Assembly: GCA_964510585.1 (NCBI GenBank)
Contig: CAZECW010000049.1
Coordinates: 1 to 27,404, forward strand
Origin: an uncultured archaeon
GTDB lineage: Archaea > Asgardarchaeota > Jordiarchaeia > Jordiarchaeales > Jordiarchaeaceae
Direction: 5' to 3'
Length of the DNA: 27,404 bases
The notes under the pieces were generated by a model. It saw only the letters and a list, made by a program, of their open reading frames with translations, searched no databases and was not told where the DNA came from. How positions within the stretch are numbered: position 1 is the stretch's first letter; the number at the start of each line of letters is the position of its first letter. Made by a program: the position numbers and the translations under genes. Below are positions 1 through 13,804 of this stretch, piece after piece.

Positions 1-36
1 GAGATAGACCTGGTTTCGAGAATGTCTGTATTCCAT
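1..36 (-). CDS. tnpA: IS200/IS605-family Y1 (HUH) transposase TnpA, N-terminal 12 codons only (runs off the window edge)
   Basis: Reverse complement of 1-36 reads ATG GAA TAC AGA CAT TCT CGA AAC CAG GTC TAT CTC = MEYRHSRNQVYL. This resembles the typical TnpA start (..R/H-x-x-VY-x-x-x-YH-x-VW) and lies just inside an IS608-like left end. The catalytic motifs are outside the window. Confidence 0.7.
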   Translation of the reverse strand, partial: MEYRHSRNQVYL

Positions 37-136
37 CTATTGATAACCATAAATTTATCAATACACCAGCCTATAAACTTTTTTTGGCGATTCATCCCCA
101 CGACTTGAAGTCGGGGGCTTTCTCGCCAACGGTTTT
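1..136 (-). mobile_element. Left end of a probably autonomous IS200/IS605 (IS608-like) element, truncated by the window edge
   Basis: Minus strand: TTAC (140-137) | aaaaccgttggcgag AAAG cccccgac-ttcaa-gtcgtgggg atgaatcgcca. This is the IS608 layout: TTAC cleavage site, AAAG guide and subterminal hairpin. It is nearly identical to 7129-7182 and followed by a tnpA-like start. Confidence 0.85.
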
Positions 137-140
137 GTAA

Positions 141-7031: not shown

Positions 7032-7132
7032 TCTAAAACAAAAAATACACATAAAAAATTTCAACAAAAAATAAAAACTATTTGGGAGAGAGTTTTTCAG
7101 AAAAAAGAGTAGGGGATTTCCCTGTTTCTTAC

Positions 7133-7403
7133 AAAACCTTGGCGAGAAAGCCCCCGACTTTAGTCGTGGGGATGAATCGCCAGAAAATTTATTTGAAAGT
7201 ATGGTATATAAATAGTTGTTGGTAGCTGAAGGGTTTGGCTTGGGCTTAAGAGGCTAAACAAGACGCAGCCCCCATGAGGGTGCCAACATAGACGCCGTTC
7301 CCATGAGGGAAGGGCGTGTTAACTGGGTGATGGCACACCCATTGCTTCGAAGGCGATGAGCCAGAAGCAAGAATCTCCCGACTTTAGTCGCGGAGAGTGT
7401 CAA
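7133..7403 (+). mobile_element. Non-autonomous IS200/IS605 (IS608-like) element, 271 bp, copy A
   Basis: TTAC (7129-7132) | ...AAAG cccccgac-ttta-gtcgtgggg (left end) ... GAAT ctcccgac-ttta-gtcgcggag agtg TCAA (7400-7403, right end). The AAAG/TTAC and GAAT/TCAA guide/cleavage pairs match IS608. There is no internal ORF, and it is homologous over its full length to 13534-13804. Confidence 0.9.
7215..7403 (+). ncRNA. Putative TnpB-type omegaRNA (right-end RNA) scaffold; predicted guide continues into 7404-7423
   Basis: Multiple stems: TGTTGG 7217-7222 with CCAACA 7283-7288; ACGCC-G-TTCCC/GGGAA-G-GGCGT; TGGGTG/CACCCA 7324-7341; terminal right-end hairpin. Two of these stems covary in the second copy. 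The position abutting the right end is where TnpB omegaRNAs lie. The 5' end is uncertain. Confidence 0.6.
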
Positions 7404-7556
7404 ATCTCCGTCCTATATGGGGGAAGTGTTTACCCTTTTTTTAAGGATGGGCTATTCTTTCATCTTTTCAAAAACGAATTTTTATATTCTTAAAAATGGT
7501 AAACAATAATTACCTTGAGCTCAAAAACAGTAACGAAAATTATGTGGTGAAAAAGT

Positions 7557-13533: not shown

Positions 13534-13804
13534 TTGGCGCTTCCCTCGACTAAAGTTGGGGGATTCTTGCTTCTGGCTCATCACCTCCAAAGCAACGGGT
13601 GTGCCACCACCCGGTTTAGCACGCCCTTCCCTCAGGGAACGGCGTCTATGTCGGCACCCTTATGGGGGCTGCGTCTTGTCTAGCCCTTTTGAGTCAAGCC
13701 AAACCCTTTAGCCACCGACAACTATTAATATACCCTAACTTAAAATAGGCTATTTTGGCGATTTATCCCCACGACTTAGTCGGGGGCTTTCTCGACAAGG
13801 TTCA
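13534..13804 (-). mobile_element. Non-autonomous IS200/IS605 (IS608-like) element, 271 bp, copy B (putative omegaRNA cassette)
   Basis: Minus strand: TTAC (13808-13805) | tgaaccttgtcgag AAAG cccccgac-taa-gtcgtgggg ... GAAT cccccaac-ttta-gtcgaggg aagcg CCAA. Same length as and colinear with 7133-7403, roughly 80-85% identical by eye. Confidence 0.88.

Follow-up and report, generated by a model that had tools for sequence, protein, structure and literature searches.

A gene-free mini-element of the IS200/IS605 type with a retained omegaRNA scaffold and its family in an uncultured Asgard archaeon

Can a mobile element that encodes no protein carry a guide RNA, and what would such a guide be used for? 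This question is raised by a unit of 271 nt at positions 7133-7403 of a 27,404-nt stretch of DNA from an uncultured archaeon of the Jordiarchaeales (Asgardarchaeota; assembly GCA_964510585.1, contig CAZECW010000049.1, positions 1 to 27,404 of the forward strand), the whole of which is referred to here as the window. The unit, hereafter the mini-element, stands directly 3' of a TTAC tetranucleotide and terminates in TCAA. An earlier note, made from the letters of the window alone, had described a 271-bp unit without an open reading frame (ORF) and with signals of the IS608 type at both ends, and each feature that it listed was found in place; the longest ORFs inside the unit comprise 45-49 amino acids (aa), none exceeds 49 aa, and the frames are broken by insertions and deletions (indels) among the copies of the element. 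Judged from its sequence, the mini-element is a palindrome-associated transposable element (PATE) or miniature inverted-repeat transposable element (MITE) of an IS608-like member of the IS200/IS605 group of insertion sequences (IS), in which the scaffold of the omegaRNA, the guide RNA of the nuclease TnpB, has been retained.

Family, insertion sites and parent insertion sequences

The window's own assembly (G000) consists of 3.78 Mb in 217 contigs, and all counts given below for G000 refer to this assembly. In total, 29 full-length copies with 88-97% identity to the unit were recovered by BLAST, along with 90 contig-terminal fragments, each about 140 nt long, and 13 partial copies in contig interiors, and about one fifth of all contig ends fall within the family. 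The full-length copies are 95-98.5% identical to their own consensus, which suggests that the amplification burst was recent. In a pattern search, 93 left junctions were identified, of which 80 have TTAC in register and 7 more have it offset by 1 nt, while TCAA was found at 79 of 80 distinct right junctions; the multiple copies and the boundaries, for which the earlier note had named a BLASTN search as the check, were thus recovered. The flanks beyond both junctions are unrelated between copies, and all 80 right flanks of 16 nt are unique. Position -5 of the insertion sites is rich in T (45/80), and the base directly 3' of the insertion point is most often A (44 of the 80 junctions) and only once G. 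After restoration of the insertion site, no open frame of at least 120 aa spans it in 24 of the 29 copies, and most sites therefore look intergenic. The ratio of read depth in the element core to that in the flanks, which is not a copy number, was about 42 in the DNA run X2 and about 42-76 in the DNA run X3.

The precise mode of insertion can be read from the copy at C72:57273-57551, which is absent from the congeners G001 and G004. Both hold a precise empty site, with no target duplication, which reads ...GAAATTTAG|AATTTAATGC (left flank also given as ...AAATTTAG), as compared to ...GAAATTTAC[element]AATTTGTTGC for the filled site on C72 (left flank also given as ...AAATTTAC). In this empty-site alignment (A2), the insertion point lies immediately 3' of the tetranucleotide. 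At the window locus, the left flank is likewise kept through TTAC in G001 and G004 and is then followed by other DNA without an element, so TTAC belongs to the target and the element proper begins at position 7133, in agreement with A2 and with the earlier note, which had placed TTAC outside the element. The 3' flank at 7404-7423 has a conserved counterpart in G001, behind a TTAC. The window copy was also considered as an empty-site case in its own right, and was rejected because its two flanks lie on different contigs in G001, G003 and G004, separated by other DNA. No joint that skips the element at the window locus was found in the DNA runs X2 and X3 or in the RNA runs X12 and X22, in which the immediate flanks are without cover.

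We compared the mini-element to the full-length insertion sequences of the same genome. Genes for a Y1 transposase (tnpA), with Y1_Tnp scores of 119.8 bits and of up to 128.9 bits, were identified on three contigs (C7, C162 and C169), each with a left end (LE) upstream that is 91-97% identical to the LE of the mini-element and with the start of a tnpB gene downstream. The C-terminal part of tnpB, followed by the right end (RE), was recovered at four contig ends (C8, C45, C54 and C152; Cas12f1-like_TNB, 66 bits). The RuvC glutamate, the CxxC..CxxC ribbon and the HRD motif are all present in this multi-copy IS, and its RE differs from that of the mini-element by one mismatch. A second IS605-type element at C81:5075-6900 (locus L061, 573-2420, minus strand) encodes a complete and apparently intact TnpB, which matches solved TnpB and Cas12f chains with an E-value of only about 1e-5. 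Its tnpA is degenerate, with the HUH motif lost, and forms a single frame of 557 aa that runs into tnpB and on through the RE to TCAA-TGA; the element has a TTAC and a left hairpin of its own and an RE similar to that of the mini-element. TnpB genes with an intact glutamate and final aspartate motif are thus present in G000. About four ORF-less relatives with a scaffold of about 180 nt were observed on C58, C107, C32 and C21.

Pairwise alignment places positions 1-90 of the mini-element on the LE of the multi-copy IS and positions 112-279 on the last 150 nt of that IS, which comprise the 3' end of tnpB and the RE, at about 77% identity. Over stem C and the final 45 nt, the mini-element resembles the C81 element more than the multi-copy IS. 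It has three parts, namely the LE of the IS, a short spacer rich in AT and the terminal ~170-190 nt of the IS. The earlier note had seen a protein-free derivative of an IS608-type element with both ends preserved, and had regarded the lack of a tnpB relative with a homologous 3' region as evidence to the contrary; a cognate IS with tnpA and tnpB, matching in both LE and RE, and homology of the interior to its tnpB 3' end were both found in G000.

In IS608 of Helicobacter pylori (ISHp608), TTAC lies 19 nt from the foot of the left hairpin, guide sequences stand 5' of each hairpin and TCAA follows the right hairpin on its 3' side (PMC3201880). The mini-element has the same TTAC, AAAG, GAAT and TCAA motifs and bulged subterminal hairpins in a similar geometry, with TTAC 18 nt from the left hairpin foot; its insertion likewise creates no duplication, and its parent IS carries tnpA and tnpB as ISHp608 does (PMC3201880). 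The left hairpin at 7151-7171 reads CCCCCGAC-TTTA-GTCG(T)GGGG and the right hairpin at 7375-7395 reads CTCCCGAC-TTTA-GTCG(C)GGAG; they are direct repeats of one another, each with its guide tetranucleotide on the 5' side, and terminal inverted repeats are absent. Unlike ISHp608, the mini-element is gene-free, and its TCAA lies 7-8 nt from the right hairpin foot, as compared to 10 nt in IS608. The proteins of the parent IS in G000 also differ from those of ISHp608 in being archaeal relatives.

Fold and covariation of the interior

The interior of the mini-element (7216-7403) folds at -80.2 kcal/mol (z = -4.4 against shuffles), in line with the dense stems described in the earlier note, and its opposite strand folds at -69.3 kcal/mol (z = -4.2 against shuffles). 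Many of the pairs are G-U, which favours the tnpB-sense strand. Relative to the family consensus, 4 nt (CTCC) are missing from the window copy well inside stem C, the penultimate stem, and this deletion is common to 9 copies. The 5' domain of the scaffold (7217-7288) is loosely alignable to tnpB coding sequence located 105-150 nt from the right end of the IS, and is absent from the shorter mini-elements of G004. Its outer arm at 7217-7222 pairs as TGTTGG...CCAACA in the window copy and as TGTCGG...CCGACA in a second copy of the family within the window (13534-13804), a compensatory change that bears out the covariation claimed for this arm. No Rfam family was found at the gathering threshold anywhere in the window.

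An alignment of 18 sequences (A1) was compiled from mini-elements of G000, IS right ends of G000 and G004, mini-elements of about 210 nt from G004 and one element from G003. In this alignment, a structure made of three stems (A, B and C), the right hairpin and a putative pseudoknot is paired in 94% of the cells, as compared to 37-50% in slid controls, and seven pairs have changed on both sides, including 5 of the 10 pairs of stem A. The nested part of this structure, 128 positions long, was converted into a covariance model (R1), which scores 120.7 bits at the core scaffold of the window copy. R1 identified 82-86 sites in G000, 17 in G004, 16 in G003, 10 in G023 and 8 in the closed genome G005, while the remaining 36 genomes searched have 0-3 each. 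Distant matches were re-aligned to yield 24 distinct sequences (A3), an alignment that was fitted to the model and hence favours it. In A3, 91% of the cells are paired, as compared to about 50% in slid controls, and 25 of 30 pairs have changed on both sides, values that none of 500 shuffles reached; much of this covariation lies between families. A covariance model had been among the checks named in the earlier note, and the covariation found in the structure is strong.

The R1 matches, which are spread across the phylum, overlap the 3' ends of tnpB genes in G032, G002, G023 and G000, and the interior of the mini-element is therefore a member of a structure family that occupies the omegaRNA position. 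R1 matches also lie in ORF-less elements of G001, G003, G004 and G005. The independent ORF-less families are about 210 nt long in G004, 235 nt in G005 and 355 nt in G001, next to 275 nt in G000, and all of them keep a core of at least 125 nt. Among the 29 copies in G000, the interior varies less per column (0.49-0.83 changes) than the part comprising the LE and the spacer (1.37 changes), and all indels are confined to loops or bulges.

Two further observations concern the architecture of these elements. A common layout of TTAC, LE hairpin, TATA-like box, scaffold, RE hairpin and TCAA or TCAG was observed in G004 (L063-L068 and L070), G005 (L094) and G001 (L087). In addition, TGGCAC in the loop of stem B (7324-7341) could pair with GTGTCA at the RE (7398-7403) in a guide-proximal pseudoknot. 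Both halves are nearly invariant, and the few changes are one-sided (from G-U to G-C or A-U), for which reason the pseudoknot is offered as a suggestion.

Candidate promoter, guides and competing explanations

Gene-free elements of this kind have precedents. PATEs of the IS200/IS605 type have been described in Haloquadratum walsbyi (PMC3119063), and Halanaerobium hydrogeniformans contains a single PATE of 271 nt composed of an LE, the last 58 nt of tnpB and an RE (PMC7290912). PATEs are also on record from Geobacillus stearothermophilus, in a study which states that PATEs often encode omegaRNAs, on which the TnpB of other elements must act, and which showed a role of IS605 TnpB in homing and retention (Meers et al., 2023, PMC10055086). 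According to the summary in PMC10691335, mobilised omegaRNAs at standalone loci are reported to work in trans when the effector is compatible (Altae-Tran et al., 2021). Like the PATEs, the mini-element is protein-free, has both IS605-type ends, has an interior made of the tnpB tail and the RE, which is the omegaRNA region, and would be mobilised in trans. Its host is a hot-spring archaeon, as judged from the run labels, with about 80 copies, the layout of an LE box plus scaffold recurs in several independent families, and the scaffold of the G000 family is extended at its 5' side by a domain of about 70 nt, in all of which it differs from the PATEs. It resembles the standalone omegaRNA loci in that it lacks an effector and a transposase while effector-bearing loci are present in the same genome, whereas the nuclease to work with it would be a TnpB for which TTAC is the predicted transposon-associated motif (TAM). 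The effector in the 2021 trans tests of a standalone omegaRNA was reportedly IscB. The earlier note had left novelty to depend on host and scale. ORF-less PATEs with omegaRNAs and trans-acting standalone omegaRNAs are already published (PMC10055086, PMC10691335; Meers et al., 2023; Altae-Tran et al., 2021, 2023), and the G000 family is a large archaeal example that introduces no new principle.

A transcript of the scaffold would require a promoter, for which the spacer offers two AT-rich boxes. The distal box, TTTATTTG (7188-7195), is kept in 27 of the 29 copies and aligns with a box behind the LE of the full-length IS, whereas few parts of the family vary as much as the proximal box, TATATAAA (7205-7212). 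In the C81 element, TTTAAATA is located 22 nt upstream of the tnpA start, a spacing as in leaderless archaeal promoters. A comparable box stands behind the LE in the mini-elements of G004, G005 and G001, and lies about 20-25 nt before the scaffold in G004 and G005. TTTATTTG is therefore a candidate for a transcription factor B recognition element and TATA box (BRE/TATA) inherited from the tnpA promoter. Conservation, on which the choice between the boxes is based, makes it the better promoter candidate of the two, and it would place the 7217-7224 arm inside the RNA. Only five tRNA genes were identified in G000, a 96%-complete genome, by aragorn at default settings, and TATA-like hexamers were not concentrated at any position in front of 1031 long ORFs, so that no organism-specific promoter model was obtained. 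In the RNA library X22, two contigs of a relative cover the equivalents of positions 7256-7404 and 7319-7404 and continue past the RE.

An RNA that crosses the right end would carry the adjacent flank as its guide. For the window copy, the predicted TnpB target is TTAC followed by ATCTCCGTCCTATATG. A match to TTAC plus guide elsewhere in G000 was found for only one of the 80 guides, and this match is a variant of that guide's own locus; the flanks of the insertion sites share no motif beyond TTAC|A. Since each guide is the copy's own 3' flank, all 80 are unique and the only match in the assembly is of this kind, the expected target is the empty site of each copy itself.

The best explanation as a whole, and one that we consider reasonably probable, is that the mini-element is a PATE or MITE mobilised in trans whose scaffold RNA is used by TnpB for retention. 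TnpA from the full-length IS copies would move the mini-element as a single strand by "peel and paste"; mobilisation by this TnpA is suggested by the copy number, the empty sites and the identity of the ends. The LE-adjacent tnpA promoter would drive a scaffold RNA of about 190 nt that reads over TCAA into the flank, and TnpB from the IS copies would load it. Upon excision, TnpB would cut the restored empty site, that is TTAC plus flank, and recombination with the sister chromosome would reinstate the element. The guide would thereby serve the persistence of its own copy, as in the homing and retention model, rather than a free targeting repertoire, and selfish homing at its own empty site is the most likely role in view of the guide analysis.

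Several observations weigh against this explanation. About 85 residues from the middle of the multi-copy tnpB are missing from the G000 assembly, and the tnpB of the IS copy on C7 is frameshifted. The scaffold, at only ~77% identity to the multi-copy IS, is composite, with parts from that IS and parts from the C81 element, and compatibility with either TnpB is for this reason only putative. Within the 29 copies, stems and loops have 0.49 and 0.83 changes per column, a difference that is not significant (p = 0.16-0.5), and since the copies are also young, the covariation may date from tnpB-bearing ancestors. An ORF-less relative in G022 (L095) lacks stems A and B. Finally, the X22 contigs belong to relatives from another habitat that diverge upstream of 7256, could represent DNA carry-over, and do not allow transcript ends to be read.

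The strongest alternative, which we consider rather unlikely, is that the mini-element is a passive relic, an internal-deletion derivative mobilised by TnpA and recently amplified, with an omegaRNA-like interior that has no RNA function of its own. With 95-98.5% identity to the consensus, conservation can be explained without selection. The loops have no significant excess of substitutions over the stems, the 4-nt deletion within stem C has spread to 9 copies, and the RNA-library contigs give no evidence of expression. Against this reading, several independent ORF-less families have kept the whole 125-nt core, although an RE of about 45 nt is enough for complexes of IS608 TnpA (PMC3201880). 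The lower variation of the interior than of the LE and spacer, and the confinement of indels to loops and bulges, also speak against it. Retention of the core in independent mini-elements and the lower variability of the interior as compared to the left part thus argue, indirectly, for function over relic.

It is considerably less probable that the stems act in some other way without guided cleavage, either as a single-stranded DNA structure that aids excision and integration by TnpA, or as an RNA with a regulatory or titrating effect on TnpB or tnpA, for instance as decoy or antisense. Transposition of IS200/IS605 elements uses the same (top) strand as single-stranded DNA, and a strand-specific structure with G-T pairs would fit DNA equally well; about 80 scaffold copies could also swamp the TnpB of 4-9 IS copies. 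However, the same structure family is located at tnpB 3' ends, the known position of omegaRNAs, and the TnpA complexes of IS608 form without any need for sequence 5' of the guide tetranucleotide of the RE (PMC3201880). The dispersed, programmable guide repertoire proposed in the earlier note, taken as a host-level system that would direct TnpB to targets other than the insertion sites, such as foreign DNA or host genes, is hardly credible: 80 different 3' flanks do amount to 80 potential guides, and, according to PMC10691335, standalone omegaRNAs "provide for targeting additional sites", but the guides are fixed by the site of insertion, the single match in the genome is a variant of the guide's own locus, and the sites themselves, most of them without a spanning frame, have no motif in common beyond the target tetranucleotide and the following A.

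Window features, contig joins and significance

The coordinates of the mini-element and of related features in the window are listed in Table 1. Besides the second, older copy, the window contains the LE of a full-length IS at its start.

Table 1. Features of the mini-element family and its parent IS in the window.
Feature	Position	Strand	Basis
LE of a full-length IS, running off the contig start; TTAC at 140-137, tnpA ATG at 36-34	1..140	-	Alignment with IS LE
TTAC, target and left cleavage motif, flank DNA; predicted TnpB TAM	7129..7132	+	80/93 left junctions; empty-site alignment
Left end (LE): 18-nt spacer closing with AAAG (7147-7150), bulged hairpin (7151-7171)	7133..7187	+	IS LE identity 91-97%
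A-rich stretch with two AT-rich boxes, TTTATTTG (7188-7195) and TATATAAA (7205-7212)	7182..7212	+	First box aligned with IS LE-adjacent box
Scaffold 5' domain: closing stem 7217-7224 with 7281-7288, enclosing inner hairpins	7217..7288	+	Fold; 1 compensatory pair
Core scaffold: stem A (7292-7317), stem B (7324-7341), stem C (7342-7370)	7292..7370	+	Homology to last ~110 nt of IS tnpB; covariation
Right end (RE): GAAT (7371-7374), bulged hairpin (7375-7395), cleavage motif TCAA (7400-7403)	7371..7403	+	79/80 right junctions
3' flank ATCTCCGTCCTATATGGGGG, guide if a transcript crosses the RE	7404..7423	+	Predicted from the known TnpB/omegaRNA arrangement
Second, older family copy, 85% identity; TTAC at 13808-13805, terminus CCAA instead of TCAA	13534..13808 (element 13534-13804)	-	R1, 101 bits

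Remnants of 46-53 nt, in which the start of an LE, a single hairpin and the tail of an RE (..GTGTCAA-like) are fused, were observed four times, at 2586-2634 on the minus strand of the window and on contigs C40, C19 and C130 of G000. They are diverged, each is single, and they look like products of recombination between LE and RE hairpins. Their use as scaffold-less controls was considered and rejected, because each has a single hairpin and is not mobilisable.

The contig path through the window copy was compared to the congeners. In both G001 (C31/C372) and G004 (C204), other DNA, here termed X, follows directly on the MCM gene and TTAC, and in G001 the end of X, with TTAC, comes before the flank on the PAP2 side. 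X is also present in G000, with its left part behind the RE of an element on C74 and its right part before TTAC and the LE of an element on C101. The LE on C101 is 100% identical to the window copy over 139 nt, and the right half on C74 differs from the window copy in one loop only. Since X in G000 is flanked by near-identical copies of the element, the real arrangement is probably MCM-element-X-element-PAP2, and the contig path MCM-element-PAP2 may represent a recombinant or deletion haplotype, or a join made by the assembler through the repeat. Both junctions of the window copy are real under either arrangement, and the guide assignment holds for the right junction. The mini-element family accounts for about one fifth of the contig breaks in G000 and can produce false or recombinant joins, as in the window.

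A similar pair was observed within G000, where C12:8676-9153 and C154:1-2321 contain the same right half of an element, 100% identical including its private variants. On C12 this right half is joined directly to ATGGATCAGG..., and on C154 it is joined to 1983 nt that close with TTAC, after which the same flank follows (98% identity). The difference looks like a deletion from the RE to just after the downstream TTAC, or like two strains. Together, the comparisons of C12 to C154 and of the window to G001 hint at deletions that extend from the exact RE to just after a TTAC. A more far-reaching proposal, which we put forward tentatively and regard as doubtful, is that several independent mini-elements have recruited the LE-borne tnpA promoter as one dedicated to omegaRNA, which would turn them into self-expressed guide cassettes that outnumber the TnpB source by about 10:1, and that these cassettes or TnpA may also drive deletions of this kind.

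In the family of G000, IS605 derivatives of the guide-RNA-only kind have expanded on a very large scale within a hot-spring archaeon that holds just a handful of parents encoding TnpA and TnpB. Natural trimming has left scaffolds of about 125 and 190 nt, on offer for a thermophilic TnpB whose predicted TAM is TTAC, and the family provides a natural test bed for the use of omegaRNAs in trans and for the homing model outside the bacteria.

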